Assembly: GCF_000021565.1 (NCBI RefSeq)
Contig: NC_012440.1
Location: 696,210-760,209, forward strand
Source: Persephonella marina EX-H1
Lineage (GTDB): Bacteria > Aquificota > Aquificia > Aquificales > Hydrogenothermaceae
Reading direction: 5' to 3'
Length of the DNA stretch: 64,000 nt
Under the pieces are notes generated by a model. That model was not told where the DNA came from and searched no databases. It worked only from the letters and a program-made list of their open reading frames with translations. Shown here in pieces: positions 5,582 through 54,790 of the stretch; the stretch's first letter is position 1; each line of letters starts with the position of its first letter. The translations under genes were made by a program, and so were the position numbers.

Positions 5582-6361
5582 TCATTTTGTCTGATCTAAA
5601 AATATTCCTATTGATGTTTCAGAGTTTTCAATAAATGAGTTTATATCCTCAACACCTCTGTTGAATATCAGGAGATCATAGTTGTTTTTTCTTGCATAGT
5701 ATGGGATTTCCTTTTTAGGATCTCCTTTTATAACGAGAAGTTCCGTTTTCTCTTCACCTACAGCTTTAGCTATCAGTGATCTGACAGTATCAACATGCTC
5801 CCTGAACATCTCAGCTATTATCTGCTTTGCTTCACCTTCAGTGTGGGTCTTTACAAGTCTTTTTTCATAGAAGTCCTCGTAAAATGAATATATGAATTTA
5901 TAATTCTCTAATACTCTGTCTGCGAAATATTTTGAGCTCTTTATGAAATCAACGGTTGAATGGTCTTTACTTACATATATCAGACCATTTTTTAAAGTAT
6001 CTGTATCTTCCTGTAAAGCCAGTATGTTTGTACTTTCAAACTCCTCCAGTATTTTTTCGCAGTATGTATGGTGGAATATATGTTCTAAAGGATCTATCTT
6101 TTCTTTTGTTAAAACAAGCAGGTCAGGTGAGTAGCTTTTTACAAACTCTATTCCTTCATCAAGACTTGATTTGACCTCTATCTTATAATTGATCCCTTCA
6201 TTTATGAGATCCCTTTCTATACTGTCTTTTGGGATATTATCAAGGTCAGAAACCAGTATTACTACTTCTTCGTCAAGTTTCTTTGCCAGATCTTTTAAAA
6301 TTGAAAAGTTATTCATATTGAACTTTTTATATTGAAAATAGACGATCCGCTTAAATAGCAT
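5582..6361 (-). CDS. Tandem universal-stress-protein (UspA) domain protein
   Basis: The C-terminal half has a Usp-like motif (LLVIKGDPKKEIPYYARKNNYDLLIFNRG). It sits directly upstream of the permease on the same strand. Confidence 0.5.
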   Translation of the reverse strand: MLFKRIVYFQYKKFNMNNFSILKDLAKKLDEEVVILVSDLDNIPKDSIERDLINEGINYKIEVKSSLDEGIEFVKSYSPDLLVLTKEKIDPLEHIFHHTYCEKILEEFESTNILALQEDTDTLKNGLIYVSKDHSTVDFIKSSKYFADRVLENYKFIYSFYEDFYEKRLVKTHTEGEAKQIIAEMFREHVDTVRSLIAKAVGEEKTELLVIKGDPKKEIPYYARKNNYDLLIFNRGVEDINSFIENSETSIGIFLDQTK

Positions 6362-6461: not shown

Positions 6462-7328
6462 TTAGACACTCCCCATTCTTCTTGCCATCTCATAGAGTCT
6501 TCTAATTCTTTCCTCTGTAGGTGGATGTGTTGAGAATAGTGAGGCTATAGAACTTCCTTTTAAAGGATTAACTATCATCATATGTGCAGTTCCGGGATTA
6601 ACCTCCCTTGCTGCTACAGGTGCAAGTTGATGAGCGGCCATCTCTAACTTTTCCAGAGCTTTTGCAAGTGATAGAGGACATCTGCATATCTCAGCACCTG
6701 TAGCGTCAGCAGCGTACTCCCTTGATCTTGATATTGCCATCTGTATTATCATCGCTGCTATAGGTGCAAGAATAAATAACAGCAGTGAGCCGATAAGTCC
6801 TCCTATACCGTTGTCCTCATCATTTCCTCCAAAAATATTTGACCAGAAGGCCATCTCAGCAAGCATTGAGATAGCGCCACCAATAGTTGCTGCAATTGAT
6901 GAGATAAGTATATCCCTGTTTTTTATATGGGCTATCTCATGTGCAAGAACCCCTCTTAACTCTTCAGGAGAGAGGATATTCAGTATTCCTGATGTAACAG
7001 CCACAACAGCATTTTTAGGGTTTCTACCTGTTGCAAATGCATTTGGTATTTCCGTTGGGGCAAGGTATATTCTTGGTTTTGGAATACCTGCATTCCTTGC
7101 AAGTTCAGCCACCATATCGTGTAGCCATGGGGCTTCTTCATAAGGAATCTCCTGAGCCCTGTACATTTTTAATGCCATTTTATCTGAGAACCAGTATGCA
7201 AAGAAGTTCATAGCCATTGCAAAGAAGAAGGCTATTATCATACCGGTCTGACCACCTATTATCTTCCCTGCAAGTAAAAACAGTCCAGTTAAAACACCAA
7301 GTAGCAGGACTGTTTTGATAGTATGCAT
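6462..7328 (-). CDS. htpX: Zinc metalloprotease HtpX (M48 family)
   Basis: [10 protein letters not shown] HExxH zinc motif, N-terminal TM helices, and overall HtpX architecture and length. Confidence 0.9.
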
Positions 7329-37475: not shown

Positions 37476-38441
37476 CTACCCTCCTATGCTTGTCATTATT
37501 CTTCTGCAGTCTGAGAATGCATACCCCGATCTCATTATCTTCTGGTTTGATATATCTTTCTCAATGAGAACCTTCTTTATAAATCTGTCTAACTCCTCAT
37601 CAGTTCCGTATCTGACAACCTCTTTTGCGTCCAGTTCGTCATCTGTTCTGAGACACAGCTTGATATGTCCTTCCGCTGTAAGTCTAAGTTTTGAACAGCC
37701 ATCACAGAATGGGTTTGATATAGGTGTTATAAAACCTATCTTTGTTCCAAGTTTTGGTATTTTGTAAACCCTTGCTGCACCGCTTCCAACGGATATGGCA
37801 GGTATGAGTTTACCGTACTTTTTTTCTATCTTATCCTTTATCTCTTTAAGAGGCTGTACCTTATCCTCCGACCACTGGATCTGTTCACCACCTATAGGCA
37901 TCATCTCAATAAATCTGACCTCAACACCGTACTCTTTACCAAACTCAACAAAATCAAGGGCTTCATCCTCATTTAAACCTTTTACTATAACAGCATTTAC
38001 CTTTATAGGATCGTATCCAAGCTCCTTTGAAACCCTTATCCCTTCAAGAACATCCTCAAGTCTTCCCTTTGTTATCTGGTAGAAAAGTTCAGGCTTTAGG
38101 CTGTCAATTGATATATTAAGTCTGTCTAAACCTGCCTTTCTCAGTTTCTCAGCATGTTTTGACAGTGTTATAGCATTTGTTGTAAGTGATATATCATTTA
38201 TCTGGGGGATATCTTTTAACATTTTTACAAGCTCTTCAAGCTGGGGTCTGACTAACGGCTCGCCGCCTGTTATCCTCACCTTCCTCAGTCCGTACTTCGT
38301 CATAGCCTTAACGAGTCTTGCTATCTCCTCATATCTCAGTATCTCGTCATGGGGAACAAACTCTGAGTTATCCGGACGGCAGTAAAAACATTTCAGGTTG
38401 CACTTGTCTGTAACGGAGACTCTTAAATATGAGATGTTCAT
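37476..38441 (-). CDS. moaA: GTP 3',8-cyclase MoaA (radical SAM)
   Basis: LRVSVTDKCNLKCFYC radical-SAM cluster, RITGGEPL, and C-terminal Cys for the second cluster (CDGCSKLRLT). Confidence 0.9.
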   Translation of the reverse strand: MNISYLRVSVTDKCNLKCFYCRPDNSEFVPHDEILRYEEIARLVKAMTKYGLRKVRITGGEPLVRPQLEELVKMLKDIPQINDISLTTNAITLSKHAEKLRKAGLDRLNISIDSLKPELFYQITKGRLEDVLEGIRVSKELGYDPIKVNAVIVKGLNEDEALDFVEFGKEYGVEVRFIEMMPIGGEQIQWSEDKVQPLKEIKDKIEKKYGKLIPAISVGSGAARVYKIPKLGTKIGFITPISNPFCDGCSKLRLTAEGHIKLCLRTDDELDAKEVVRYGTDEELDRFIKKVLIEKDISNQKIMRSGYAFSDCRRIMTSIGG

Positions 38442-38582
38442 TTTTATCCTCCAGATATTAGCATTTTCTAATAAATCTTATTAAACCTTATTCATAAGGT
38501 TATATCATTTTTGTCCATATGACAAGTTTGAAATATCGGTATTAAAGATATTAATTGATTTTCAGTATGACATTGATTTTGA

Positions 38583-39416
38583 TCAAGTATTGAATTTTTT
38601 TAATAGAAGTTTGTAAATCCTGTTTTTTGGAAATCCTGTTTCCTCGGATATTATTTTTGATATCTCCTTTATCCTTTTACCTTTTTTGTAAAGCTCTTCC
38701 GCCATTTCAATTATATAATCCTCGTTAAATTCCTCACTTTGAACAGGATTACAGATGATCACAAACTCTCCCTTAATAATATCCTTATTCTGATCCAGAT
38801 ACCGGTAAACATCCTTTATATTTCCTCTTATAAATCTTTCATGGATTTTCGTTATCTCCTTCCCAACAACAACCTCACTGTCAGGAATGATCTCCTCAAT
38901 TATTTTTAATGTTTTCAAAACTCTCAGAGGGCTTTCATAAAGGATAAATGTGTACCCTATCTGTTTTAATCTCTCTATCTCTTCCTTTTTTTTCTTTTCC
39001 TTCTGAGGAAGAAATCCTACAAAAATAAATCTGTCTGAGGGAAGTCCTGATGCTGATAATGCTGCTGCTCCAGCAAAAGGACCGGGGATGGGAACAACAT
39101 TTATACTGTTTTCCCATGCTTTTTTAACAACCCTGTATCCAGGATCTGAGATACACGGTGTTCCGGCGTCTGAGACAAGTGCGATATCCATTCCTTCTTT
39201 TAAAAGGGATATAATCTTATCAGAAGCCTTTTCCTCTATATGCTCATGGTATGAAACAAGTTTTTTCCCTGTTATCCCGTAATGGCTGAGAAGTTTTCTT
39301 GTTACCCTCGTATCCTCACAGGCTATGATATCTACATTTTTTAATATCTCAACAGCTCTGTAAGTGATATCTTTCAGGTTACCTATCGGTGTTGCAACGA
39401 TATAGAGTGTTCCCAT
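38583..39416 (-). CDS. rsmI: 16S rRNA 2'-O-methyltransferase RsmI (tetrapyrrole-methylase fold)
   Basis: GTLYIVATPIGNLKDIT...IIACEDTRVTRKLL matches the RsmI N-terminal consensus. Confidence 0.9.
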   Translation of the reverse strand: MGTLYIVATPIGNLKDITYRAVEILKNVDIIACEDTRVTRKLLSHYGITGKKLVSYHEHIEEKASDKIISLLKEGMDIALVSDAGTPCISDPGYRVVKKAWENSINVVPIPGPFAGAAALSASGLPSDRFIFVGFLPQKEKKKKEEIERLKQIGYTFILYESPLRVLKTLKIIEEIIPDSEVVVGKEITKIHERFIRGNIKDVYRYLDQNKDIIKGEFVIICNPVQSEEFNEDYIIEMAEELYKKGKRIKEISKIISEETGFPKNRIYKLLLKKFNT

Positions 39417-40225
39417 TAATGTAATGTACCGTTTTTTATGTATCTGTAACCTATAAATATTCCATCTTTAAATACGGACACCTTTCCATCAGGGATATCA
39501 AGTATCTCTTTTTCTGTTATCTTTTTATAGAAAAATCTTAACTTTTTCTCGCCGAAACTGTTTATATGTATCTCTCCCATATCCTTTCTGTATCTTCCAT
39601 CAATGAGTATCACATTGAGATTTTTAAACTCAACAGGTGTTGTATTTTTTATATTTATAAATCCTGTCAGATACTTACCGTTGCTCTTCTCAACAAGTAT
39701 ATACTCCGCATCCCAGTTTAGACCTTCTACAGGGTACTTTACCCTGAATATCTGGCTCTGGGCAAGCTCAGACTTTACTTTAACTGTTATCTGGGGAGAG
39801 AAAAGCTCATTCCATTTAAGTGGTGATTTTATTCTTGATGGAAAATCTGGAACAGTTGTTATTACAAAACCTTTTCTTGTGTTTATCTTTATATATTCAT
39901 CATTGATATCTATAACTGTTCCTTTTATAACCCTTCCTTCACCTTCAACAGATACAAACTTCCCTATAAGATTTTTTTTCCAGTCTTTACTTACATTCTC
40001 AAGAAAGTAGCCTTCTATCTCTATACCATCAGCTTCTATAAGAATGCTGTCAGTTATTGCTATAGGTTTTAAAAAGATAGGTCCTATAACATTCTCACCG
40101 TCAGCAACCATAAACTCCTCTTCCTGAATGTATGTTGAATGTCCTGTTCTGCTTAAAAATAATGTGTCTGCAAATGAAAAACTGAGATCAAAAAATAGGA
40201 TAAAGAGGATAACTTTTTTAAGCAT
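39416..40225 (-). CDS. Hypothetical exported protein
   Basis: Signal peptide (MLKKVILFILFFDLSFSFA). Its stop overlaps the rsmI start (TAATG). No known motif. Confidence 0.55.
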   Translation of the reverse strand: MLKKVILFILFFDLSFSFADTLFLSRTGHSTYIQEEEFMVADGENVIGPIFLKPIAITDSILIEADGIEIEGYFLENVSKDWKKNLIGKFVSVEGEGRVIKGTVIDINDEYIKINTRKGFVITTVPDFPSRIKSPLKWNELFSPQITVKVKSELAQSQIFRVKYPVEGLNWDAEYILVEKSNGKYLTGFINIKNTTPVEFKNLNVILIDGRYRKDMGEIHINSFGEKKLRFFYKKITEKEILDIPDGKVSVFKDGIFIGYRYIKNGTLH

Positions 40226-40316
40226 TTTCCCTCCAGTTGTATGAGTTTAAAACTAATTATATCATCTCCCATTGAATACAGATTAATGTTTTATAATATT
40301 CTTAAACTGAAAATAT

Positions 40317-42158
40317 TTGTGGAGGAAAGATTTGAACAGAGAGTACAACTTCAAAGAGATAGAGGAGAAGCTTTTAAAAGAGTGGGAAGAAAATGATCTT
40401 TTTAAAACAGAGGAAAAACCTGATAAGGATAAATTTTACGTTCTTGAGATGTTCCCTTACCCTTCAGGAAGAATACATATGGGGCATGTAAGGAATTACG
40501 CTATAGGTGATGTTGTTAACAGATACCTCAGGATGAAAGGTAAAAACACACTTCACCCTATGGGATGGGATGCATTTGGTATGCCTGCTGAAAATGCTGC
40601 AATAAAAAGTGGTGTTCACCCAGCAAAATGGACTTATGAGAATATTGATTATATGAAAAAAGAGCTTAAAAGGCTTGGATTTTCATACGACTGGAACAGA
40701 GAGGTAACAACCTGCTCGCCTGAGTATTACAGATGGAACCAGTGGATATTCCTTAAGATGTACGAGAAGGGAATCGCTTACAGAAAGTCTGCTGTAGTTA
40801 ACTGGTGTCCACACGATATGACTGTTCTTGCAAATGAGCAGGTTATTGAAGGAAGATGCTGGAGATGTGATACACCTGTTGTTCAGAAAGAGATACCTTC
40901 ATGGTTTTTAAGGATAACAGATTATGCTGAGGTTTTACTTGATGATCTTGAGACACTAAAAGGGAAATGGCCTGAAGCTGTCCTTACAATGCAGAAAAAC
41001 TGGATAGGAAAGTCTGTTGGTGCAACGATAAGATTTCCTGTGGAGAACTCTTCACAGTATATTGAGGTTTTCACAACGAGACCTGATACAGTTTTTGGTG
41101 TTACTTTTATGGCTTTAGCTCCCGAACATCCTGTTGTTTTAGAGCTTTCAAAAGGAACAGATCAGGAAGAGGATGTTAAAGCTTTTGTTCAGAAATATCT
41201 AACAATGTCAACAAAGGAAAGAGGCATAGTTGAGGAGAAAGAAGGGGTTTTCACAGGAAGGTATGCGATAAACCCTCTAACAGGAGAGAAAATACCTGTA
41301 TGGGTTGCTAACTACATTCTCTGGGGATATGGGACAGGTGCGATTATGGCTGTTCCAGCTCACGATGAGAGGGATCACGAGTTTGCAAAAAAATACGGAA
41401 TTCCAATAAAGCCTGTTATAAAGCCTTTGGAAGGTGAGTGGGACTACCAGGAGAAAGCATTTGAAGAGGAAGGGATTCTTATAAATTCTGATGGCTTTGA
41501 TGGGCTTAAATCATCTGAGGCAAAGGAAAAGATAACAGAGGAGATTGAAAAGAGAGGTATTGGAGAAAAAACAATAAACTTCAGACTCAGAGACTGGAAT
41601 ATATCAAGACAGAGATACTGGGGTACGCCTATACCTATAATTTACTGTAATGACTGTGGAACTGTTCCTGTTCCTGAAGAAGATCTGCCTGTTTTACTTC
41701 CTGAGAATGTTGAGTTTACAGGCATGGGAAATCCCCTTGAACAGGTTGAAGAGTTTGTTAAAACAACCTGTCCAAGATGTGGAAAGCCTGCGAGAAGAGA
41801 AACTGATACTATGGACACATTTATAGACAGCTCATGGTATTTCCTGAGATACTGTGATCCTCACAATGAAGAACTACCTTTTGATAAAGAAAAGGCTGAC
41901 TACTGGATGCCTGTTGATCTGTATATCGGTGGGATAGAGCATGCTGTACTACATCTGCTTTACTCAAGGTTTTTCACGAAGTTTTTAATGGAAATAGGTC
42001 TTGTTGATGTTGAAGAGCCGTTCTCCCAGCTTCTCACACAGGGAATGGTTCTGAAAAAGTGGATAAAGATAGAAAAACTCCTTGAGATACTTGGGGTTGA
42101 TGAAAACATAACGCTGGATGAACTGAAACTGAAGGTGGAAGAACTAAAGAGTAAGTAA
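40317..42158 (+). CDS. leuS: Leucyl-tRNA synthetase alpha subunit (N-terminal 613 aa of a split LeuRS)
   Basis: HMGH class-I motif, the CP1 editing domain and a zinc knuckle. It ends about 30 aa after the conserved LTQGMV, with an added amphipathic tail. The KMSKS motif is missing. Confidence 0.9.
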
Positions 42159-42227
42159 TACTTGTAACCGGAAAAATTAATTATACATTTATGTATTATA
42201 CAACGATGTATAATACGGATTTGTATA

Positions 42228-43352
42228 ATGGAACATAAAGAAAGAAATCCTTTTTATTTTGGTGGAACTGTTAGTAACGAAGATTTTTGCAACAGGGAAA
42301 GGGAGCTTGAAGAGCTGAAGAGGGATATTTTTTCTGGCATCAACATACTTCTGTATTCTCCACGGAGATTTGGAAAATCATCACTCCTTCTAAGGCTAAA
42401 AGAACAGCTGGAAAATGAAGGAATAAAAGTTATTTTACTTGATCTGTTTCCTGTTGTAGATGAGAAAGATTTTATAAACCGGTACTTTGATGAAACTATA
42501 AAAACACTGCTCTCCAGAAAAGAGAAGGTTATTCAGACTCTAAAGGAACTGACAAACCTTAACTTTAGTGTTAGCTCTACCCTTAAACCTGACGGCAGTG
42601 TAACCTTTTCTGTTTCTTTTTCTTCAAAAGAGAAAAAAACAGTTTTAAAAGAGATACTGGAAATTCCATTTTTATACGCTACCAAAAACAACGCAAATGT
42701 CGCAGTAATATTTGATGAATTTCAGGAAGTTGAGAATTTAGGATTAGAAAAAGAGATCAGAACAGTTATCCAGAACCACGGCAGGAATGTTTCTTATGTA
42801 TTTTCAGGAAGTAAAAAGAGTGTCCTTACCCAGATTTTTTCTAATAAAAGCAGACCTTTTTATAAGTCGGTTAAAAAATTTCCATTAAAGGAAATTCCAC
42901 TTGAAGAGTGGATACCGTTTATCCAGAATAAATTTGAAAAAACAGGAAAAAAGATAGATGAAGAAATAATAAAAGAGGTTTTTTGTATCTGCCGAGGATT
43001 TCCATATTATATCCAGCATATATGTTATGTTCTGTGGGAAGTTTCTAAAGAAAAAGTAAAAAAAGAAGATCTAGATTATGCAATAAATCTTGTTCTGGAA
43101 AGGGAAGAGGACTCTTTCTGGGAAGAGTGGTCAAATTTACCGCCAACTCAGAAGAAAGCTTTAAAAATAATAACCTACACAAATGGTAAAAATATTTATT
43201 CAAAAAACACTCTTTCTGAATTTGAGATCACTGCTTCACATCTTAAAAGAGCAATAGAACAACTTCAAAAAAAGGATATCATCACTAAGGAAAGAAATAC
43301 TTATCAAATTATAGACCCTATTATGGAACTGTGGATTAAAAAGAATTTTTAA
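42228..43352 (+). CDS. Archaeal-type AAA ATPase (Arch_ATPase with a DUF234-like C-terminal domain)
   Basis: N-terminal FFGGTVSNEDFCNRERELEEL, Walker A YSPRRFGKSSLL, Walker B AVIFDEFQ and a C-terminal wHTH-like region. Confidence 0.8.
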   Translation: MEHKERNPFYFGGTVSNEDFCNRERELEELKRDIFSGINILLYSPRRFGKSSLLLRLKEQLENEGIKVILLDLFPVVDEKDFINRYFDETIKTLLSRKEKVIQTLKELTNLNFSVSSTLKPDGSVTFSVSFSSKEKKTVLKEILEIPFLYATKNNANVAVIFDEFQEVENLGLEKEIRTVIQNHGRNVSYVFSGSKKSVLTQIFSNKSRPFYKSVKKFPLKEIPLEEWIPFIQNKFEKTGKKIDEEIIKEVFCICRGFPYYIQHICYVLWEVSKEKVKKEDLDYAINLVLEREEDSFWEEWSNLPPTQKKALKIITYTNGKNIYSKNTLSEFEITASHLKRAIEQLQKKDIITKERNTYQIIDPIMELWIKKNF

Positions 43353-43364
43353 ATCCTGCTTTAG

Positions 43365-43589
43365 CTATGAATCTTTGTTTACTATTTCATTAATAGCTCT
43401 CACACTAACTCCAAGTTCTCTGGCAAGTCTTGACTGCGAAAGTCCTAAAGGTTTTATAAATTCCTCTTCAAGAATCTCCCCCGGATGTGTAGGTTCTCTT
43501 TCAAGCTGTATAACAGAGAGAGCCTCTATTCTTTTATCTGTTTTTAAAGCTTTCTTAAACTCTTTTACTAAAATAATAACATCGTAGGC
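43365..43589 (-). pseudogene. higA: HigA/VapI-type antitoxin remnant (XRE HTH), no start codon and C-terminally truncated
   Basis: My minus-strand translation reads ...[43 protein letters not shown], matching the HigA consensus [22 protein letters not shown]. There is no in-frame ATG, and the HTH is cut short. Confidence 0.5.
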
Positions 43590-43592
43590 TTA

Positions 43593-43697
43593 GCCATTTT
43601 CAAATCTAAATATAATTCTATACTGGAAAACCTTTCTGATATCCCCATTTGTAAGATATCGCTGTTGAAAAACTCTTTTCCTGACCTCCCATGATAT
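43593..43697 (-). pseudogene. higB: HigB/RelE-type toxin remnant (C-terminal fragment)
   Basis: Translation ...DIRKVFQYRIIFRFENG* then in frame after the stop AYDVIIL, resembling the HigB C-terminus (RIIFRFEGGDAYDVDYIDYH). There is no start codon and an internal stop at 43590-43592. Confidence 0.45.
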
Positions 43698-43753
43698 CTA
43701 TACTCCTCCAGATGTTATAATAAGTTTTATAAAACTTTAATCAAGGAGCGGGA

Positions 43754-44617
43754 ATGAAAACCCTGAAAGAGTTTCTTGAAGAGAACCATCTGACACTTAA
43801 TGATAACGCGAAACTTCTTTTTGAAAAGTTAGATCTTGATATGGAAGTTTTGAAACAGCTTGAGGAAAAATACGGAAAATCTGACAAGATGTCAAAATCT
43901 AAACACAACACAGTTGATCCTGATGAGATGATAGAAAAGTACGGGGCGGATACTGTCAGGCTTTACATACTTTTTGCAGCTCCACCACAGAACAGCTTTG
44001 ACTGGATAGACAGCGGTATTGAAGGGGCACACAGATTTTTAAAAAGGGTCTGGAACTTTGTTGTTGAAAGGGCAGACCAGCTAAAAGATGTCTCATACTC
44101 AAAGGAAGATTTTAAAAACCTTCCTAATGAAGACCAGAAACTGAGAAGAAAACTTCACCAGACAATAAAAAAGGTAAACGAAGACATAACAAGGGAGTAC
44201 CAGTTTAATACAGCAATAGCTGCCATTATGGAGCTTATGAATGAGCTTACATCCTATAAGGGAAGTAATCTTAAAGTTTTAAAGGAAGCTGTTGAAAATC
44301 TTATACTTATGCTTTCCCCATTTACCCCTTTCATAGCAGACCAGCTGTGGAGAACTATAGGAAAAGAAGGATACACAATACAGCAGCCTTTCCCTGAACC
44401 TGATGAGGAGGCTCTTGTTGAAAAAACAAAAGAGATACCTGTCCAGATAAACGGAAAGGTGAGGGCAAGAATTACCGTCCCTGCAGATGCTGATGAGGAG
44501 ACGGTCAAAAATATAGCTTTTGAGAATGAAAGTGTTAAAAAATGGACAGAAGGTAAGGAGATAGTTAAAGTTATATTTATAAAGGGTAAAATACTTAACA
44601 TAGTAGTTAAAGGTTAA
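43754..44617 (+). CDS. leuS: Leucyl-tRNA synthetase beta subunit (C-terminal 287 aa: KMSKS plus the anticodon-binding domain)
   Basis: Begins about 40 aa before KMSKSKHNTVDP and continues through the anticodon-binding domain (GADTVRLYILFAAPP). An AAGGAG RBS sits 6 nt upstream. Confidence 0.9.
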   Translation: MKTLKEFLEENHLTLNDNAKLLFEKLDLDMEVLKQLEEKYGKSDKMSKSKHNTVDPDEMIEKYGADTVRLYILFAAPPQNSFDWIDSGIEGAHRFLKRVWNFVVERADQLKDVSYSKEDFKNLPNEDQKLRRKLHQTIKKVNEDITREYQFNTAIAAIMELMNELTSYKGSNLKVLKEAVENLILMLSPFTPFIADQLWRTIGKEGYTIQQPFPEPDEEALVEKTKEIPVQINGKVRARITVPADADEETVKNIAFENESVKKWTEGKEIVKVIFIKGKILNIVVKG

Positions 44618-44627
44618 GAGGTAGGAG

Positions 44628-45062
44628 ATGAGTTATAAAAATATCCTTGTAGGTTATGATGGATCTGATCCAAGTAAGAAGGCTTTAAAAAAGGCTGTAG
44701 AACTCTCAAAAATAATGAAAAGCGATCTACATATAGTAGGTGTTGTCAGACCTTTCCAGTTTGCTGCTGTTGATTTTATACTTCCTGAAGAGATAGAGGC
44801 TTATGAGAAAGAGGAGATATCAAAAGAGGAGAGATTTTTAAAAGAGGCTCTTGAGATAGCGAAAGAATCGGGCATTGAGGCAAAAACAAAGGTTCTTGAA
44901 GGTGAGCCCGCTGAAGAGCTTATGAGTTATGCTGATGCTAACGGATGTGATCTTATAGTTGTTGGTCATAGAGGAGCAGGTGGATTTAAAAGGCTGATAC
45001 TTGGAACAACAGCTGGTAATCTTGTTAAGTATGCAAACCAGTCTGTATTAGTTGTTAAGTAG
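44628..45062 (+). CDS. Universal stress protein UspA
   Basis: 144 aa with ILVGYDGS...VVGHRGAGGFKRLILGTTAG, the Usp ATP-binding motif. Confidence 0.85.
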   Translation: MSYKNILVGYDGSDPSKKALKKAVELSKIMKSDLHIVGVVRPFQFAAVDFILPEEIEAYEKEEISKEERFLKEALEIAKESGIEAKTKVLEGEPAEELMSYADANGCDLIVVGHRGAGGFKRLILGTTAGNLVKYANQSVLVVK

Positions 45063-45617
45063 CTTTTCTTTAATTTTTGGGTATATAAGGAATAGAGTTA
45101 TAAGGACAAAAAGTACACCTACAGCCATAAAGTAGTACTCTTTTACTTCGCCAAATATATGTTCTGCAGCTTTTCCAAAGAAAAAGCCTATGGAAAGGTA
45201 TATAACAGCCCAGAAGAAAAGGGATATAAGATTAAAAAATATAAACTTAAACATACCAAATCCTGTTGCACCCATAAGAACCATAGGGACTACTCTCATC
45301 CCGTAAAGAAATCTGATAATGAATATTGACAGTATTCCGTATTTATCAACAAGCTGTTTTGCCTTCCTGTATTTTTTTCTTGTGTAAACATTTCCAAGTA
45401 AAAACTCCCTTCCCTTCCATCTACCGAGGAGAAAGTATATTATCTCGTGGAGAAATGCTCCTGACATTGCAGATACAAGGGATACAAAAGGGTTGAGCAT
45501 CTTAAGTTTTATAAAAAAGCCAACTATAAGGAGAAATATCTCACCTTCAAGGAAAGTTCCTATAAAAACTGCTATATACCCGTAATGCTGAAGAAAATTC
45601 TCTAAACTCTCTATCAA
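45048..45617 (-). CDS. DedA-family (SNARE-associated) membrane protein
   Basis: HYGYIAVFIGTFLEGE N-terminal DedA motif plus TM helices. Confidence 0.8.
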   Translation of the reverse strand: MIESLENFLQHYGYIAVFIGTFLEGEIFLLIVGFFIKLKMLNPFVSLVSAMSGAFLHEIIYFLLGRWKGREFLLGNVYTRKKYRKAKQLVDKYGILSIFIIRFLYGMRVVPMVLMGATGFGMFKFIFFNLISLFFWAVIYLSIGFFFGKAAEHIFGEVKEYYFMAVGVLFVLITLFLIYPKIKEKLLNN

Positions 45618-45647
45618 AATTCTCCCTCTGTAAAATAAACAAAGATA

Positions 45648-46154
45648 TTATAACTTATGAATAAGGTACTGTTGAAAGAAAATGTTTGAAAAAAGATGAA
45701 ATATAAATGGAGCTATAACCGAACCAGATCTGATATAAAGATATCCAAATATCAGAGAGGGGAAGAAGGTGAGAACACTCAGTATATCTGGATTTATGAT
45801 AACGTGAGGTAAGGAAAAAAGGACGGAGACTGTGATATTCCGGAGATGAATATTCTTTACCGGTACTGTGGATAAAAGATAACCTCTAAAAAATATCTCC
45901 TCTGCAAAAACCTGTCCTGACTGATAGAAATTTTGTATTGAGATACTATTCCATATAAAAGGGAGATATACAGAAGACAACAACGACCCATACAATATTC
46001 CGGATCTGTAGTTTTTTAAGCCTAACTCTTTTAGATCCTTAAAGATAAGAGGGGAGATAAGAACAAAGAAGGAGGCATAGAAAAATAGGCTGTTAAAATA
46101 TGTAAGTGATAGCAGTAATACCAGCAGTATATAAAGCGTAAAAGCTGAATACAT
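45648..46154 (-). CDS. CPBP-family (CAAX/Abi) intramembrane metalloprotease
   Basis: EEIFFRGY (the EExxxR motif), the LPH and HLFSN His motifs, and a multi-TM fold. Confidence 0.75.
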   Translation of the reverse strand: MYSAFTLYILLVLLLSLTYFNSLFFYASFFVLISPLIFKDLKELGLKNYRSGILYGSLLSSVYLPFIWNSISIQNFYQSGQVFAEEIFFRGYLLSTVPVKNIHLRNITVSVLFSLPHVIINPDILSVLTFFPSLIFGYLYIRSGSVIAPFIFHLFSNIFFQQYLIHKL

Positions 46155-48025
46155 CAGGCTTTCAACCTTTTTAACTTCTGGAGATGTATCATTATAGCTG
46201 TTATAGCCGCTGGAGTTATCCCTTCAAGTCTTGCAGCATGACCGAGGGTTAGAGGTTTTGCAGCTGTCAATTTCTGGACTACCTCTTTTGTAAGTCCGGC
46301 TATCTGTGAGTAGTCTATATCTTCAGGTATCTTTATGTTCTCCAGATATCTCATCTTTTCATTCATCTTTCTTTCCCTTTCAAAGTATCCTGAGTACTTA
46401 ACATTGATATCTATCTCTTCAGCCACATAATCACTCTCAGGTGTTTCAAAGCCGTACTCTTTAAGTTTATTAACATCTATATCAGGTCTTTTTAAAAGAT
46501 CATAAGCTGAAACGGATCTTGTCTCGCCTTTTGATACTATCTTCCTTCTCTCATTTCTGTAAATATCAAGCCATCTGCCTATCTCTTTCTCTATCTCTTC
46601 TACAGCTTTAAACTGCTCGTAGCTCAGCATACCGAGATTGTAAGCCTTTCTGTAAAGTCTTAAAACAGGATTGTCCTGTCTGAGATGAAGTCTGTACTCT
46701 GATCTTGATGTAAAAAGTCTGTAAGGCTCTATAACACCTTTTGTTGTGAGATCATCAATCATAACACCTATATAAGCCTCGTCTCTTCTTATATAAAACG
46801 GTTCTTTACCAAGTGCCCTCAGTGCAGCATTTATACCTGCGACAAGACCCTGTCCCGCTGCTTCTTCATATCCTGTTGTTCCATTAAAGTTTCCTGCGTG
46901 GTACAGACCTTTTACTCTCTTTGTCTCAAGTGTTGGGTAAAGTTCAGTTGGTGGGACTATATCATACTCAATTGCGTATGCAGGCTTTAGTAATACAACA
47001 TTCTCAAGTCCCGGGATTGATCTGTACATCTCCCACTGGACTTCTTCAGGTAGAGATGTTGAAAGGCCGTTTGGATATATACTTATGCCGTTCTTTGTTT
47101 CAGGCTCAAGCCATACTGTATGTCTCTCTTTGTTCTCAAACTTTACTATCTTGTCTTCTATTGAAGGACAGTAACGGGGACCTATACCTTTTATAGCTCC
47201 GCCATAAAGTGCTGTTCTGTGTAAATTCTCCCTTATTATTCTGTGTGTTTCTGGAGTTGTATATGTTATGTAGCAAGGTATCTGCTCTTTCTGGTTTTTT
47301 CTGAACCAGTATGAGTGCTCTGGATCGGTCCAGAATGAGAACTTTGGTGCAGGTTCATCTCCTGGAGCTTCCTCAAGACCTGAAAAATCAATCGTTCTTT
47401 TATCAAGTCTCGCAGGTGTTCCTGTTTTGAACCTCTGGAGGGGAAATCCAAGCTTTCTGTAAAAATCAGGGAGTTTTGTTGATGGTTTTTCGTCCATTCT
47501 TCCTGCAGGTATCCTTTTATCTCCTATATGAATAACACCATCGAGGAATGTTCCTGTTGTAACAACAACAGACTTGGCTCTGATCTTTAATCTTCTATCT
47601 ACCTCAACACCTTCAACTTCGTAACTGCTCTCTTTCAGATAAATATCTGTAGCCTCACCTTCAATAACTGTGAGATTCTCTGTGTTTAGAACCTTATTAA
47701 CCATATACTTTCTGTACTCTTCCTTGTCAGCCTGTGCCCTCGGTGATCTTACAGCTGGACCTTTTCTTGTGTTTAAGGTTTTAAACTGGATACCTGTAGC
47801 ATCAATCGCCTTTCCCATCTCACCGCCGAAAGCATCAATCTCCCTTACAACAATACCTTTTGCAATACCACCTATAGCTGGATTACAAGGCATAAGACCT
47901 ACTTTTTCTTTATCTAATGTGATAAGGGCAGTCTTCACCCCGAGCTTTGCAGAGGCAAGGGCAGCCTCAATACCAGCATGACCACCACCTATAACAACAA
48001 CATCATACTCAAGGTCATATACCAT
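46154..48025 (-). CDS. mnmG: tRNA uridine-5-carboxymethylaminomethyl modification enzyme MnmG (GidA)
   Basis: FAD-binding [16 protein letters not shown]-terminus and full length of 623 aa. Confidence 0.95.
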
Positions 48026-48158
48026 AAGATCACCTCTTTTCTGTTATATGAAACTAAAATAATATATGAAAATCATACCTTTATACAACACAGCTTGAAT
48101 ATATTTTTTCAAAACAGTAAATATAAAAGTATATATTCCGTTACAGGGAGGAGGTGTT

Positions 48159-49430
48159 ATGTTTCCCTTTATTATCATCTTTATTATGGGACTTTTTTTG
48201 ATTTTGCCCCAGCAGGTTTTTGCTATACCTGCATTTGCGAGACAGTACAAGGTTAGCTGTAACACATGTCATGCAGCATTTCCAAGGCTGAATAGCTATG
48301 GTGAACAGTTTGCAGATGAAAACTACAGAATGCCTAACTGGAGGGACACTGTTCTAGATACAGGCGACAGTATGCTCGCTCTACCTAAGTATGTTCCACT
48401 TTCAATAAGGGCTATGGCTTACGCTCAGGTAAGGGAAGGAAAGTATATAGATCCGGTCAGTGGTGAGACTGAAAAAGCTGACACAGACTTTCAGGCTCCG
48501 TATATGATAAAGATTCTTTCAAGTGCTCCACTTTCAGACAGAATATCCTTTTACTTTTACGGTATCTTAGCTGAGAAAGGAGAGAACGGAACTGTTATCG
48601 TTGAGGATGCGTGGTTCAGCTACTCAAGCATTTTCAATACAGGGATAGACCTTATGATAGGTCAGTTCCAGATATCAGATCTGATGTTCCCAAGGGAGCT
48701 CAGACTTACATTCCAGGATTATATGATATACAGAATGGCTGGAATAACCTATGATAGAGGAGTTATATTCAGTAAAGGCTTTGATCCAGTTTCCATAGAT
48801 TTAGGTCTTGTGAACGGAAATGGGATTGAGGAAAACCTTAAGATAAACAGCCCGGGTTATAAAAGACCTGATCATATGTTTGATAATGACAGGAAGAAGA
48901 CAGCATTCGGCAGGATCGGTGTAGATATAGCAGGTGTCTCAGCAGGTCTGTTCGGACTTTACGGTAAGCAAAAAACAAAGCTCACAACAAGTGCAGGAAC
49001 AAAAAGTGGAAGCAGGTATGCGGATAAAAAGATATACGGGCTTGATATATCTGGAAATGTAAATGATAAGGTCTACTATTTCTTCCAGTATCTTTACAAT
49101 GACTGGGGAAAGTACTTTGATGATACACCAAACAAAAAATACCAGTGGTGGGGTGTCTTCGCAGGAGTTGATTATGTCTACAGTGATAAAGTTGTTCTGT
49201 CTGTTCTGTATAACTATGCTGATGCTGGAGACTTTGACGGAACATCAACAGTTTATGAAGGTATAAATATAAACACATTAACACTCACATACTCATACTA
49301 CTTTATGAGAAATGTTAAAGGTATTATTGAGGCAACATACGACTTCCAGTCAAAGGATAATGATCCTGATTTTGTAGGACATGAGACAAAGGAAGGATAT
49401 ATTCTGATAGGATTTGATGCTGCATTCTAA
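48159..49430 (+). CDS. Putative outer-membrane beta-barrel protein with an N-terminal CxxCH haem-c motif
   Basis: Signal peptide, then CNTCH at residues 34-38. After that comes about 380 aa with alternating-hydrophobic, Gly/Tyr-rich strands and a C-terminal ...IGFDAAF (terminal Phe), the outer-membrane beta-barrel signature. Confidence 0.55.
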   Translation: MFPFIIIFIMGLFLILPQQVFAIPAFARQYKVSCNTCHAAFPRLNSYGEQFADENYRMPNWRDTVLDTGDSMLALPKYVPLSIRAMAYAQVREGKYIDPVSGETEKADTDFQAPYMIKILSSAPLSDRISFYFYGILAEKGENGTVIVEDAWFSYSSIFNTGIDLMIGQFQISDLMFPRELRLTFQDYMIYRMAGITYDRGVIFSKGFDPVSIDLGLVNGNGIEENLKINSPGYKRPDHMFDNDRKKTAFGRIGVDIAGVSAGLFGLYGKQKTKLTTSAGTKSGSRYADKKIYGLDISGNVNDKVYYFFQYLYNDWGKYFDDTPNKKYQWWGVFAGVDYVYSDKVVLSVLYNYADAGDFDGTSTVYEGININTLTLTYSYYFMRNVKGIIEATYDFQSKDNDPDFVGHETKEGYILIGFDAAF

Positions 49431-49990
49431 ATATTCTTCAGAACGAACTCACCAATAGGATTTTCAAACCTTTTGTCTCCACTGTGGTAAGCTGTCCACA
49501 GGTGGAGGCATTTTACTTTAAAAGGTTTTTCCTTGAAATCTCTTATACCACCGATACCGACATTTTTATCAAGTAAGACTGAAAATCTTGGATCGTCTAG
49601 AAACTGAGGATACTTTTCTTTAAAAATCTTTATCCTTTCCTCGATCTCCCTTTCATGTAAGGTTATAAAAAAGCTGAAAAGTGACTCATCAGTGCTTATC
49701 TTTTCAGAAAAGCAGGCTATATAGCCTTTCTCCTCAAGTCTTGATATTTTTGCCCTTATATCCCTATCAAGTATCCAGAATCTTGTAGGCTGGGGTACAT
49801 AGATCTTCCTTTTTTTATCCCATACAACTATATCCTGTCTGAAAACATCAATACTCTTCACGCTCCCACATACTCTTTTCAAATCTAACAACCTTATTTC
49901 TTCCTGTTTCTTTGGCTCTGTAAAGTGCGATATCTGCAAATTTAATACACTGCCAGAATCTATCACTATCATGAGGAAACTCAGAAACAC
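49427..49990 (-). CDS. DUF501-family protein
   Basis: KCLHLWTAYH motif region. The track start is a GTG that overlaps the upstream GGDEF gene by 143 nt, so the true start is uncertain. Confidence 0.5.
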   Translation of the reverse strand: MFLSFLMIVIDSGSVLNLQISHFTEPKKQEEIRLLDLKRVCGSVKSIDVFRQDIVVWDKKRKIYVPQPTRFWILDRDIRAKISRLEEKGYIACFSEKISTDESLFSFFITLHEREIEERIKIFKEKYPQFLDDPRFSVLLDKNVGIGGIRDFKEKPFKVKCLHLWTAYHSGDKRFENPIGEFVLKNI

Positions 49991-51695
49991 CTATACTCAC
50001 CGTTTTCTTTAATGTAACCCCATCTGTGTGTATTACCATATTTTCAACCTTCTTTCTAATCTTCTCTGCTATCTCAACAGATTTTCCTTTTTCCACATCA
50101 ACAAGTAAAACTATAAACTCTTCGCCACCGTACCTGACAACAATATCAGCTTCTCTTACACTTTTATTCAGAATATCAGCAACCCTTTTTAGTACCGTAT
50201 CTCCAACATCATGTCCGTACTGGTCATTAACCTGTTTGAAGAAATCAACATCAACCATAAGTATGCCTATTGTTGATTTTCTTCTTATTGTCTGCTGTGA
50301 AAGTTTTGGTATGAGCTCCTCAAGGAATCTTCTATTGTACAGTCCTGTAAGCTGATCAACAAGTGACTGTTTTCTAAGTTTTTCCATATAAGATTTTGCC
50401 TCAATAACAGGTGCAACCTCTCTGAGGTAAGCCTCAATGAATGGAAGCTTGTTCTTTATATTAACCCTGCTTTCCTTATCGTAAATCAGCTGGAGTATAA
50501 TTCCAACTCTACCACCAACATAGATAGGAATACATGTGAAAAACTCCTCAGCCTCTCCATTCTCACATTTAATAAAGTTAGGACATACACATGCATACTC
50601 CTCAGAAACAACCTCAGATCCTGTTCTTTTCACCCTACACTGATCAGCGTCAAGGAACACAACATCCTTACACCATTTTGTCTCTTCGTCTATATCTATC
50701 AGTTTATTGTTCTCTGTATCTACCTCATAGATAGAGTACTGCTGTATATTCATATCTTTCATTAACTTTCTAAGTCTCAGATAGATATCCTCTTTTGATG
50801 CGTCTTTTTCCACAATCTTTTTAAAGTTGTAAATCTTAACAAGCTCTTCAACTATCATATAGGTATCTTTCAGTGCATTACTGCTTTTGTTAATATTTCC
50901 ACCGATAAGATATGAAACCCTGTTCTCTATGGCTGTGAGTGTGTTGCATAGTTTATCCATTGTTTCATTATATGTATCAGCAACTTCCTTAGCCTCGTCG
51001 TTTGTGTTTATAAACACTCTCTCTGAGAAATCTCCATCCTTAGCTTTGCTCAGTCCTCTTTTCAGTCTTGAGAAAAACTCTGTGTAAGGCTGGAAGAATC
51101 TAAGGATAACAAATGTTGTCATAAGGAATATAAACATTGACATGAATGTTGTCTGTATAAGATTTGCAAAGGTGAAGGATCTTACAGGGGTAAGATCTGT
51201 TTTTATGTATATAGCACCTAAGACGGCACCAGCTTCTACATTATGACATTTAAGACAGTTTATCCTGTTTATAGGCTCTGCCTTGTAAGGAAGTATGAGA
51301 ACATAGCTGACTTTATCAAAGGTCTCTTCAAGTTTTTCGTAGGGTATTCCTGTCTGTAAAACCTTCAGTTCAGCTTCCGTTTTTGGCTTTTCATTTTCAG
51401 AACCTTCTCCATACTGCTGAACAACTTTATCTCCCCTTATAACCCTTATCTCCTCTATATTTCTATGTTCAAGCTTTATATTACTTAAAAATAGATCCCT
51501 TTTATCTATCTTCCCGATCTCCATAAGTGTTGTGAGGGAGTCTCTGACTATCTCTGCTATAACCGATGACTGATTCTTAACGTGGTTGATATTAACCTCT
51601 CTGAAGCTTTTGTACTCAAGTATCTGATTGACAAGGAACAGTATAAAAAGTAGTACAGCTACTCTTAACAGTAATTTAGATCGTATTGATTTCAT
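49848..51695 (-). CDS. Membrane diguanylate cyclase with a periplasmic c-type-haem sensor, HAMP, a Cys-rich GAF-like domain and GGDEF
   Basis: TM1, a periplasmic domain of about 150 aa ending in NCLKCHN (CxxCH, residues 147-151) just before TM2, a HAMP domain, a central Cys-rich domain, then GGDEF (RYGGEEF) with an I-site. Confidence 0.8.
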   Translation of the reverse strand: MKSIRSKLLLRVAVLLFILFLVNQILEYKSFREVNINHVKNQSSVIAEIVRDSLTTLMEIGKIDKRDLFLSNIKLEHRNIEEIRVIRGDKVVQQYGEGSENEKPKTEAELKVLQTGIPYEKLEETFDKVSYVLILPYKAEPINRINCLKCHNVEAGAVLGAIYIKTDLTPVRSFTFANLIQTTFMSMFIFLMTTFVILRFFQPYTEFFSRLKRGLSKAKDGDFSERVFINTNDEAKEVADTYNETMDKLCNTLTAIENRVSYLIGGNINKSSNALKDTYMIVEELVKIYNFKKIVEKDASKEDIYLRLRKLMKDMNIQQYSIYEVDTENNKLIDIDEETKWCKDVVFLDADQCRVKRTGSEVVSEEYACVCPNFIKCENGEAEEFFTCIPIYVGGRVGIILQLIYDKESRVNIKNKLPFIEAYLREVAPVIEAKSYMEKLRKQSLVDQLTGLYNRRFLEELIPKLSQQTIRRKSTIGILMVDVDFFKQVNDQYGHDVGDTVLKRVADILNKSVREADIVVRYGGEEFIVLLVDVEKGKSVEIAEKIRKKVENMVIHTDGVTLKKTVSIGVSEFPHDSDRFWQCIKFADIALYRAKETGRNKVVRFEKSMWEREEY

Positions 51696-51758
51696 CTAAA
51701 AACTCCAGATATTATATACAGGTATTTATTATTATTACTATTCGGAACGGAAAAGTAA

Positions 51759-52307
51759 ATGTTTAAAAAAAGAATATTTATAGGTAGTTTTATCAAACTA
51801 AGTAATACTAAATTCTATACGAGAATAAAGAAGGATTTTGGCGGAATAACAACGGGAAGATGGGTTCCGGTACAGAACTTTCACATAACATACAGATTTA
51901 TCGGAGATGTTACCAGTAAGGAGCTTGAAGATATATACTCTCTCCTGAAAAATGAGATAAACTATCCACGGACTGTCAGTCTTAATCTTAAAGGGGTTGG
52001 AGCTTTCCCAAATATTAGTAATCCAAGGGTCTTTTTTATAAAAGTTGAGGACAGTAATGGAGATCTTGTTGAGATAAACAACTTTATACAGGACAGACTT
52101 TCAGTTCTAGGTTACAAAAAAGAGATCAAACCGTTTGTTCCACATATTACACTCAAAAGGCTTAAGGGTGTAAAAAGGGAAGATTTTGTTGAAAAAGTGA
52201 AGAAGTATGAGGATATTCTTTTTGATACTCAGGAAAGTCTTGAGGTAAATATTATTGAAAGTATACTCACACCTCAGGGGGCTGTTTATAAGAAAATACT
52301 GCTGTGA
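51759..52307 (+). CDS. thpR: RNA 2',3'-cyclic phosphodiesterase ThpR / LigT (2H phosphoesterase)
   Basis: Two H-x-T-x motifs (HITYRF, HITLKR) at the correct spacing in a protein of about 180 aa. Confidence 0.8.
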   Translation: MFKKRIFIGSFIKLSNTKFYTRIKKDFGGITTGRWVPVQNFHITYRFIGDVTSKELEDIYSLLKNEINYPRTVSLNLKGVGAFPNISNPRVFFIKVEDSNGDLVEINNFIQDRLSVLGYKKEIKPFVPHITLKRLKGVKREDFVEKVKKYEDILFDTQESLEVNIIESILTPQGAVYKKILL

Positions 52308-52384
52308 AATGTTAATATATATTGCAAAATTTATGATTGATTTCATTTTTTATCTAATTAGATATATGTTATCAGATACCGTAG

Positions 52385-53779
<1,395 letters not shown>

Positions 53780-53784
53780 ATGCT

Positions 53785-53806
53785 GGGGGCTTTCAGCCCC
53801 TTTCTA
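53785..53806 (+). terminator. Intrinsic terminator GGGGGCT-ttc-AGCCCC-TTTCT after thiC
   Basis: GC-rich hairpin 6 nt after the thiC stop, followed by a U-rich tract. Confidence 0.55.
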
Positions 53807-53818
53807 TCAAGGTAATAG

Positions 53819-54790
53819 ATGGAGAAGATAGAAAACATACTTGAAAGTATTGAAGACCCAATCGTTGTAACTGATTTCAAAGGGGAGATAATTTATCTTA
53901 ACCAGTCAGCTCAACAGCTAAAAGCCCAGATAGGAAAAAGACATTTTTATGAGCTTATAAATTATCCATTAACGCTTAAACATGTTAAAAACAGGATATC
54001 TGTTAAAAGTATATTCAAGGAGATAGAAAAGAGTAAGTTTTTGATAGATGCCTTTCCTTATGGAGACGATGGAGTAACCCTTCTTATAAGGGATATAACC
54101 AGATTTATTGAGCTTGAGGAGAAAAATAAGAAGGAGGGATGGATAGTAACGATCTCAAGGCTGATATCAAACATATTTCACGATATGAAAGGACCTATAG
54201 GTGGTATAAAAGGTTCTGCACAGCTTTTAAAAGAAGACCCATCAGATCAGGAGCTTATAGAGGATATACTCTACGAGGTTAAAAGACTTGAAAGTATGAT
54301 AAATGATGTAACATTAATAACAAAAACTATTAAACTACAGAAGGAAAAAACTAATATTCATATGCTTATAGACAGAGCCATAAAATCTCTTAAGTCCCAG
54401 TATCCGGAGATTGAGTTTGAAAGGATATACGACCCGAGCTTACCTGATATTGAACTTGACAGGGAGTATATGCTGAGAGTTCTGATAAATATAATCAGAA
54501 ATGGTATAGAGGCTGTTGAAGGAAAAGGAAAAATAACAGTTTACACAGGTATCTCTTGGGACAAGGTTTACTCACCAAAGGGAAACAAGATATTTATAAG
54601 AATAAAGGACAGCGGGAAGGGAGTTCCTGAAGAGATCATTGATAAGCTTTTTGTTCCTTTTACATCTACAAAAAAAGGAGGAATGGGTATAGGACTTTCC
54701 TCTTCATACAAGATAGTTAAAGAGCATGGAGGTGTTCTCAGATACATAGGGGATGCTACATTTGAAATACTACTTCCCTACAAGGAGTAA
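53819..54790 (+). CDS. Sensor histidine kinase (cytoplasmic, NtrB-like)
   Basis: PAS-like N-terminus, an H-box (FHDMKGPIGGIKGSAQLL) and HATPase N/G boxes (IRNGIEA, DSGKGV, GGMGIGL). Confidence 0.8.
   Translation: MEKIENILESIEDPIVVTDFKGEIIYLNQSAQQLKAQIGKRHFYELINYPLTLKHVKNRISVKSIFKEIEKSKFLIDAFPYGDDGVTLLIRDITRFIELEEKNKKEGWIVTISRLISNIFHDMKGPIGGIKGSAQLLKEDPSDQELIEDILYEVKRLESMINDVTLITKTIKLQKEKTNIHMLIDRAIKSLKSQYPEIEFERIYDPSLPDIELDREYMLRVLINIIRNGIEAVEGKGKITVYTGISWDKVYSPKGNKIFIRIKDSGKGVPEEIIDKLFVPFTSTKKGGMGIGLSSSYKIVKEHGGVLRYIGDATFEILLPYKE

Follow-up and report, generated by a model that had tools for sequence, protein, structure and literature searches.

The leucyl-tRNA synthetase (LeuRS) of Persephonella marina EX-H1 is encoded by two separate genes, leuS alpha and leuS beta, which lie within the 64,000-nucleotide stretch of its chromosome that was analysed here (the window, to which all coordinates refer unless another locus is named). 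A sequence-only reading of this stretch had recognised the two halves, and had proposed that the 1.6 kb of DNA now lying between them shows how the split arose. We find instead that this insert is recent, species-specific and secondary, and that it is not the cause of the split, as relatives with the same flanking genes are split with no insert at all or with other cargo in its place. The locus is, with high probability, that of an Aquificales-type heterodimeric LeuRS that was anciently cut within an enlarged leucine-specific domain (LSD), and whose spacer later received a compound insertion. Split LeuRS has been known since 2002, and the P. marina locus adds little alone; its value is comparative. 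What is new here, and modestly so, is the variable junction between the two genes, together with the natural re-fusions found among relatives.

Two genes jointly encode a complete LeuRS

Both of the leuS open reading frames (ORFs) reported previously, an alpha of 613 aa and a beta of 287 aa, are found on the forward strand, at 40317-42158 (613 aa when counted from a TTG codon) and 43754-44617 (287 aa). The longest alpha ORF opens at TTG 40317, but the true start is probably TTG 40332, giving a protein of 608 aa, because a GGAGG at 40320-40324 sits 6 nt before this second TTG. Several gene callers choose TTG 40332, and the alpha proteins of relatives begin at M-E-Y-N-F, which is the equivalent position. 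Delimited in this way, leuS alpha (40332-42158, forward strand) comprises the HIGH motif, the first part of the Rossmann fold, the CP1 editing domain and the N-terminal half of the LSD, while leuS beta (43754-44617, forward strand) comprises the C-terminal half of the LSD, the KMSKS motif, the anticodon-binding domain and the C-terminal domain. The HIGH motif reads HMGH in this protein (40476-40487), and KMSKS is encoded at 43886-43900. The P. marina EX-H1 beta protein has accession ACO03839.1 (UniProt C0QPH7), and the ATPase encoded in the gap between the two genes has accession ACO03139.1.

Pfam assigns tRNA-synt_1 and the LeuRS editing domain (tRNA-synt_1_2) to alpha. To beta it assigns the end of tRNA-synt_1, including KMSKS, followed by Anticodon_1, so that beta carries both of the elements that the sequence-only reading had expected of it. 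Compared with solved structures, alpha aligns to residues 3-580 of Thermus thermophilus LeuRS (E 7e-243), ending at ...LTQGMVL, and beta aligns to residues 634-879 of the Escherichia coli enzyme and 635-878 of the T. thermophilus enzyme, from just before KMSKS to the C-terminus. On the NCBIfam profile TIGR00396 (leuS_bact), alpha covers positions 1-572 (936 bits) and beta covers 589-843. The two ORFs jointly cover a full bacterial LeuRS, and both halves are complete. As alpha aligns up to LTQGMV and beta from just before KMSKS, the break falls inside the LSD, and these alignments to intact bacterial enzymes confirm the earlier placement of the break between the two motifs. Alpha stops 35 aa past LTQGMV, and this C-terminal tail (42051-42155, forward strand) is the N-terminal half of the enlarged LSD; beta opens 44 aa before KMSKS, and this head (43754-43885, forward strand) is the C-terminal half. 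No intein splicing blocks were found at the break, where the tails are homologous to the ordinary LSD of fused enzymes. An Rfam scan of 38000-47000 returned no matches, and thus no group I or group II intron RNA in the gap.

It is barely credible that errors of sequencing or assembly produced the split, or that leuS is decaying while another gene supplies LeuRS. Nothing specific speaks for this, although some contigs of related metagenome-assembled genomes (MAGs) do contain probable errors, such as a frameshift at the locus L019 and a TAA codon at L089 that is absent from L102. Identical leuS arrangements were seen in at least 23 contigs of independent metagenomes as well as in the finished 1,930,284-bp EX-H1 chromosome, which argues against an artefact. 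Both halves are also highly conserved with all motifs intact, and PMC2377443 and PMC3643597 cite biochemical activity for the two-gene form of the enzyme from Aquifex aeolicus (Xu et al. 2002, JBC; Ma et al. 2006, Biochemistry, on the "Split leucine-specific domain").

The split is older than the inserted DNA

According to the sequence-only reading, an ancestral intact leuS was broken by the ATPase gene and the higBA toxin-antitoxin module that now separate its halves. The halves are indeed colinear with the cargo exactly between them, and the existence of unsplit LeuRS with the same type of LSD (in L013, in L019, L089 and L102, in L021, and in Thermovibrio) means that an unsplit ancestor was real at some depth. 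However, the nearest relatives are split at the same codon either without an insert or with unrelated cargo. The flanks of P. hydrogeniphila L084 and of the loci L094, L090, L091/92, L096 and L006 match those of the window, with rsmI, a gene of 265-269 aa, alpha, beta, usp and VTT. In P. hydrogeniphila L084 the alpha and beta genes overlap by 8 nt (GATGAATAA), with a Shine-Dalgarno sequence inside alpha, and by these features the two form a classic translationally coupled pair. The distant loci L087 and L088 likewise have an 8-nt alpha/beta overlap. In L094 and L095 (90% beta identity), alpha and beta stand in one frame and are split by a single TAG plus 27 nt.

We see colinear BLAST segments between the window and both L090 (96% beta identity) and L094, extending 2.4-5.5 kb upstream and 7.9 kb downstream. 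Over these ~13 kb the sole structural difference is the alpha/beta junction itself, window 42151-43693, and homology with L090 resumes at 43694. The material that occupies the junction differs from locus to locus: the ATPase gene and a higBA remnant in the window, a 1364-aa CarboxypepD_reg repeat protein (4.5 kb) in L090, an LVIVD beta-propeller or Uma2 plus RHH-PIN in L091/L092, Uma2 alone in L096, and a molybdopterin oxidoreductase with a Ni-SOD in L006. The synteny comparison called for by the sequence-only reading shows the halves adjacent in some relatives and dispersed in others. A tblastn search found no remnants of the ATPase or of higBA in any of the insert-free loci that were fetched.

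The edges of the two genes are more constant than what lies between them. The end of alpha falls within a window of 1-5 residues across all split forms, and the DNA that directly follows its stop shows no relationship from one locus to the next. Upstream of beta, some 55-90 nt are common to the window, L090, L004 and L091/92, despite the differing cargo further upstream. Because the stop codon, the start codon and the ribosome-binding site are homologous across loci with different cargo, they predate that cargo, and were not supplied by the insert. In the window, the conserved beta leader (43694-43753, forward strand) contains an extended -10-like element, TGTTATAAT, at 43713-43721 and a Shine-Dalgarno sequence, AAGGAG, at 43743-43748. 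Boxes resembling TG(T/A)TATAAT are present also in the dispersed relatives, and TGTTATAAT is a putative promoter of beta. A generic promoter and terminator scan gave no more sites than in shuffled sequence, and did not call this conserved element.

The ATPase gene has its own history. It forms a single-gene cassette (42160-43352, forward strand) with 85% nt identity over 1194 nt to P. hydrogeniphila L101 5932-7125, and the homology to this copy opens 2 nt past the alpha stop and closes at the ATPase stop. In L101 the cassette lies between unrelated genes, ~95 nt downstream of a tmRNA gene (L101 5486-5837) that ARAGORN missed and Rfam detected (RF00023, 185 bits). The region next to a tmRNA gene is a classic island integration site. 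Since the P. hydrogeniphila copy sits at a different locus, the cassette is a relocated single-gene unit, and this again counts against the cassette as the agent that broke leuS.

Finally, the split is shared with the Aquificaceae. The LeuRS of A. aeolicus is a characterised alpha-beta heterodimer, split within one of the largest LSDs, as described in PMC3643597 with citation of Xu et al. (2002) and Ma et al. (2006). P. marina beta shows 53% identity to A. aeolicus beta over its whole length and starts at the same aligned residue (MKTLKEFLEENHL and MKIKDFLQENKIS, respectively), as is also seen in the aligned N-termini (MKTLKEFLEENHLTLNDNAKLL and MKIKDFLQENKISVGDNAIFL). The earlier statement that the break is that of the A. 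aeolicus heterodimer holds good at the beta start, which is the same aligned residue. Among the ~120 best beta relatives, which include Persephonella, Hydrogenothermus, Sulfurihydrogenibium, Venenivibrio, Aquifex and Hydrogenivirga, all are 278-297 aa long with the same start position, bar one partial sequence and two mis-called ORFs. In all of the split Hydrogenothermaceae loci examined, the frame opens just upstream of a common M-x-(K/T)-L-K-E-F start. As this start residue is common to ~120 relatives in the Hydrogenothermaceae and Aquificaceae, including A. aeolicus, the split is old. Taken with the insert-free relatives, this makes it very improbable that the ATPase and higBA insertion interrupted an intact gene.

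The break lies in an enlarged leucine-specific domain that is unsplit in some relatives

The Lys/Glu-rich tails at the break had been regarded as extra sequence that could act as a zipper. They are not additions of this sort gained after the split, but the two halves of a 79-residue LSD that is contiguous in L021 and homologous in Thermovibrio. Translation across the L013, L019 and L021 junctions gives a continuous frame. L021 (8186-10858) encodes a complete 890-aa LeuRS in a single ORF, and belongs to a cluster of four members from separate assemblies. L019 (4262-6958), L089 and L102, from three independent assemblies, make up a second fused lineage, in which L102 4318-7023 is a complete LeuRS ORF of ~897 aa; L013 (1-1509) represents a third. 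In the fused forms the alpha tail and beta head are contiguous and joined via a variable linker, and the conserved blocks flanking this linker in L013, L019, L021 and L089 align column by column with the tail and head of the window. The lengths are also similar, with 35 + 44 = 79 residues in the window, 79 in L021, 83 in L013 and 85 in L019.

An exhaustive profile-free search with alpha as the query gave, as its best representative, a Thermovibrio sp. protein of 914 aa (WP_456342347.1) with 67% identity. The Thermovibrio LSD (P0286) is contiguous and homologous (KRWISVKNLLKALGLTEESTVGELIKAL...IGSLMRKHHITVGDNAILL), and the alpha tail of the window aligns to it. Because the domain is contiguous in Thermovibrio, the enlarged LSD predates the cut. 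The two LSD halves may plausibly keep the subunits in contact. For a natural fused junction (P0044, alignment of 32 sequences), AlphaFold2 gave a model that is unreliable across the LSD, with pLDDT <50.

Several further observations concern unsplit or apparently shortened forms. In L089 the leuS gene would be fused but for an in-frame TAA at 5995-5997 (KTD*WMPVD; Y in relatives), which divides it into parts of 521 + 376 aa. At this site L102, from another assembly and 99.3% identical to L089, has TAT/TAC, so the L089 codon is an error or else a nonsense mutation at strain level. The frameshift in L019 is a probable error. The Aquificota MAG S016_44 (L036 8159-10759) encodes an unsplit 866-aa LeuRS with a short, Cys-rich LSD of 43 residues, which is unrelated to the Aquificales/Thermovibrio type. 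Short LeuRS of ~620-637 aa from other phyla (P0296, P0308 and P0324) were considered as independent splits and rejected, as their C-termini are garbled in a frameshift-like manner. A protein search with the junction peptide gave beta subunits only, with no alpha or fused forms; retrieval was limiting in this search, and it was not used for counts. When metagenomes were scanned with the junction alignment, generic LeuRS dominated the results because LTQGMVLK is widespread, and only L102 was relevant. In a limited literature search, no paper was found on the leuS arrangement or on fused forms in Persephonella or the Hydrogenothermaceae.

The junction between alpha and beta is variable

The alpha/beta junction doubles as a rearrangement breakpoint. 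L010 9959-20861 is colinear with window 43712-54621, which amounts to 10.9 kb downstream of beta at 81% nt identity. This synteny stops exactly at the beta leader (43712); upstream of that point L010 has coaBC-like and transporter genes, and its alpha lies elsewhere. In this fully dispersed Persephonella state, the break in synteny thus falls exactly at the alpha/beta junction. No alpha gene was found within 6-10 kb of beta in Venenivibrio, in a Sulfurihydrogenibium-like genome, in A. aeolicus or in several MAGs. Within the Persephonella clade (at least 85% beta identity), the two genes may overlap, be separated by an in-frame stop or by one of five unrelated cargoes, or be fully dispersed. 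On balance, these data suggest that the junction is unusually fluid in the Hydrogenothermaceae, with at least seven states in one Persephonella clade and re-fusion in at least three lineages. The Persephonella junction seems to be a place where small genes of selfish or defence type collect.

Two side observations can be made on the sequence content of these loci. The L094 junction (6971-7003, also seen in L095) reads ...KLSKQK*IKRKVSGGKMKILKEF, and a single point mutation from TAG to a sense codon, or read-through of the stop, would give a full-length LeuRS there. Uma2 (PF05685) genes and RHH_1 + PIN (vapBC-like) pairs recur at this junction across several Persephonella genomes, at L092 511-1882, L096 6316-6912 and L091 3511-4195.

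One fission with later re-fusions, or many fissions

A neighbour-joining tree was built from the beta part of LeuRS (35 sequences, ~290 residues, 100 bootstraps). The Aquificaceae, which are all split, are sister to the Hydrogenothermaceae, and the fused forms fall at three different nested places in the tree, with L021 as the sister of the split L087 (100%), L019 joined to L089 (100%), and L013 by itself. On either side of the clade containing the window stand L084 and L094, both of them split and free of insert. Reading these data as a single fission followed by three re-fusions takes four events, while the alternative takes at least 7-8 fissions, each of which would have to make a start codon at the same residue; we favour a single old fission with later re-fusions, which we regard as likely. 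The fused linkers differ from one another in length and sequence and contain no ATG (there is an ACA in L021), and fused forms were seen only in the family in which the halves were kept adjacent. If the linker had suffered a small frameshift and translation had then re-initiated, the expected trace would be an overlap like the conserved one of 8 nt, in which beta lies in the +1 frame.

The alternative is that the Hydrogenothermaceae were ancestrally unsplit, that the LSD linker was cut many times, and that the fused forms are retentions. This would sit well with the fused Thermovibrio outgroup and its homologous LSD, and with the presence of fused forms in both major Hydrogenothermaceae clades. 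A switch of state also needs only a point mutation or an indel of 1-2 nt, as seen from the TAG in L094 and from the comparison of L021 with L087, between which the net difference over the junction is 2 nt. Even so, recurrent fission at one and the same start residue appears unlikely. The fused LSDs vary in length (79, 83 and 85 residues) and lack an ATG, whereas split forms share M-x-(K/T)-L-K-E-F, and there is no fused form among the ~45 Aquificaceae betas listed.

Some of our data weigh against the history that we prefer, in which one ancient cut was followed by insertion, dispersal or re-fusion. The tree is based on ~290 residues and has weak backbone support, with many nodes below 50%, and the fused Thermovibrio outgroup together with three fused ingroup lineages would allow an unsplit Hydrogenothermaceae ancestor and recurrent fission. 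The "same split point" shared with A. aeolicus refers to the start of beta alone. The beta leader was not called by the generic promoter scan, and its promoter function is one that we infer. The ends of the insert are not marked by a target-site duplication, a terminal repeat or a recombinase.

Composition of the 1.6 kb insert

The ATPase gene and the decayed toxin-antitoxin module reported earlier are both present in the gap, and we identify them as an intact ATPase_2 gene and a broken higBA pair. The cassette (left end ACTTGTAA..., right end at the ATPase stop codon) consists of a palindromic upstream region and a 374-aa ATPase_2/AAA+ ORF at 42228-43352. The protein matches Pfam ATPase_2 (PF01637)/AAA_14 with 39.2 bits against a cut-off of 33.2, has a Walker A GKS at residue 49 and a Walker B DEF at residue 163, and shows a weak winged-helix match at its C-terminus. 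Its relatives are Persephonella orthologues (87-89%), a 44% paralogue in EX-H1, and proteins of Campylobacterota (42-48%). The description of this ATPase as "archaeal-type" reflects a Pfam family name only, as the nearest relatives outside Persephonella are from Campylobacterota. PADLOC gave weak partial matches only, with no defence-system assignment. A 23-nt imperfect inverted repeat at 42180-42229 (ATTATACATTTATGTATTATACA / TGTATAATACGGATTTGTATAAT) overlaps the ATPase start and is conserved in the copy found in P. hydrogeniphila; the winged-helix domain at the ATPase C-terminus may use it as an operator.

The remaining genes of the gap lie on the reverse strand. The higA antitoxin remnant (43368-43589) matches TIGR02607 antidote_HigA (E 2.2e-14) and HTH_3. 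Its 53 bits exceed the TIGR02607 cut-off of 47.7, yet the match covers only positions 2-44 of the 81 in the profile, corresponding to the N-terminal half of the helix-turn-helix (HTH) domain, and the remnant breaks off ~15 nt from the end of the cassette. Next to it, 43590-43697 is tentatively assigned as a higB toxin remnant, a 36-residue C-terminal fragment (...YRIIFRFENG*) with no start codon. Its frame is closed at the 3' end by a TAA (43590-43592), in frame with the downstream higA remnant, and upstream by a TAG (43698-43700). The sole family match of this fragment is to PF05015 HigB-like_toxin, with an E of 0.11 that is below threshold. An intact HigB/RelE-like toxin ORF was not found in the gap, where there is only this stop-bounded fragment. 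In tblastn searches of the fetched loci, the higBA remnant is unlinked to the ATPase elsewhere.

A repeat search for insertion scars at 42159/43694 came back empty: neither direct nor inverted repeats flank the insert, and there is no target-site duplication or terminal repeat. No transposase, integrase or recombinase domain occurs among the ORFs of the gap.

Discussion

The origin of the fission is not readable from the P. marina locus, but its polarity is readable from the relatives, where an enlarged LSD of the Thermovibrio kind gives way to a cut linker and then, according to lineage, to adjacency, insertion, dispersal or re-fusion. We propose that the enlarged ~79-residue LSD came first and that its variable linker was cut afterwards, most likely once, before the Aquificaceae and Hydrogenothermaceae diverged. 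The Hydrogenothermaceae would then have retained the halves side by side, as a translationally coupled gene pair. Later, in P. marina and its lineage, foreign DNA would have entered the short spacer between alpha and beta, in two steps or more. The first arrival may have been a higBA module, which afterwards decayed; the 1.19-kb ATPase cassette would then have arrived, with either its arrival or an associated deletion truncating higA. This order is the simplest one; of the 81 positions of the HigA profile, the match reaches only 44, and it breaks off just where the cassette ends. Beta would now be expressed from its own leader (TGTTATAAT and AAGGAG), and no longer by coupling to alpha.

The comparison corrects a tempting but wrong inference, in which cargo found between two gene halves is taken as the cause of their separation. 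It also provides a natural series for one essential enzyme, in which fused, in-frame-stop-separated, overlapping, cargo-separated and dispersed forms coexist among close relatives. Such a series is suited to tests of the neutrality of gene fission (constructive neutral evolution), of subunit stoichiometry after the loss of coupling, and of the role of the LSD halves in assembly. If our reading is true, this is a natural and repeatedly reversible fission and fusion of an essential aminoacyl-tRNA synthetase, of which split, stop-separated and fused versions can be directly compared.

Comparison with known systems

Among orphan ATPases of the PF01637 ATPase_2/AAA_14 group, the window protein shares the above-threshold Pfam match and the Walker A and B motifs; its relatives are mostly found in Persephonella and Campylobacterota, not in archaea. 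With HigBA type II modules the window shares the N-terminal half of the HigA HTH, a HigB-like C-terminal motif, and the order of toxin then antitoxin on one strand. In contrast to such modules, its genes are broken, with no start codon, a stop between the fragments and a truncated antitoxin, and on these features the module is judged not to be functional.

The P. marina LeuRS resembles that of A. aeolicus in having subunits of ~610-634 and 287-289 aa, and in being cut within an unusually large LSD between LTQGMV and KMSKS. The A. aeolicus genes are far apart, with no alpha within 6 kb of beta, whereas those of P. marina are colinear and 1.6 kb apart. The unsplit LeuRS of Thermovibrio and of Hydrogenothermaceae MAGs have homologous LSD segments (KKWI.I..LLE.LG..E..T and L.E.HL..NDNAKLL), and the LSDs of Thermovibrio, L021, L102 and L013, at 79-87 residues, are equal to the alpha tail and beta head of the window combined. 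These four are single polypeptides in which the linker has no stop or start codon, while the window enzyme is split. The adjacent, coupled genes of P. hydrogeniphila L084 and its relatives L087 and L094 are like the window in their flanks, alpha end, beta start and Shine-Dalgarno sequence, with 81% and 75% nt identity. They differ at the junction itself, where their genes either overlap by 8 nt or are spaced by 27 nt with an in-frame TAG, and where the window carries 1.6 kb of cargo together with a beta leader of its own.

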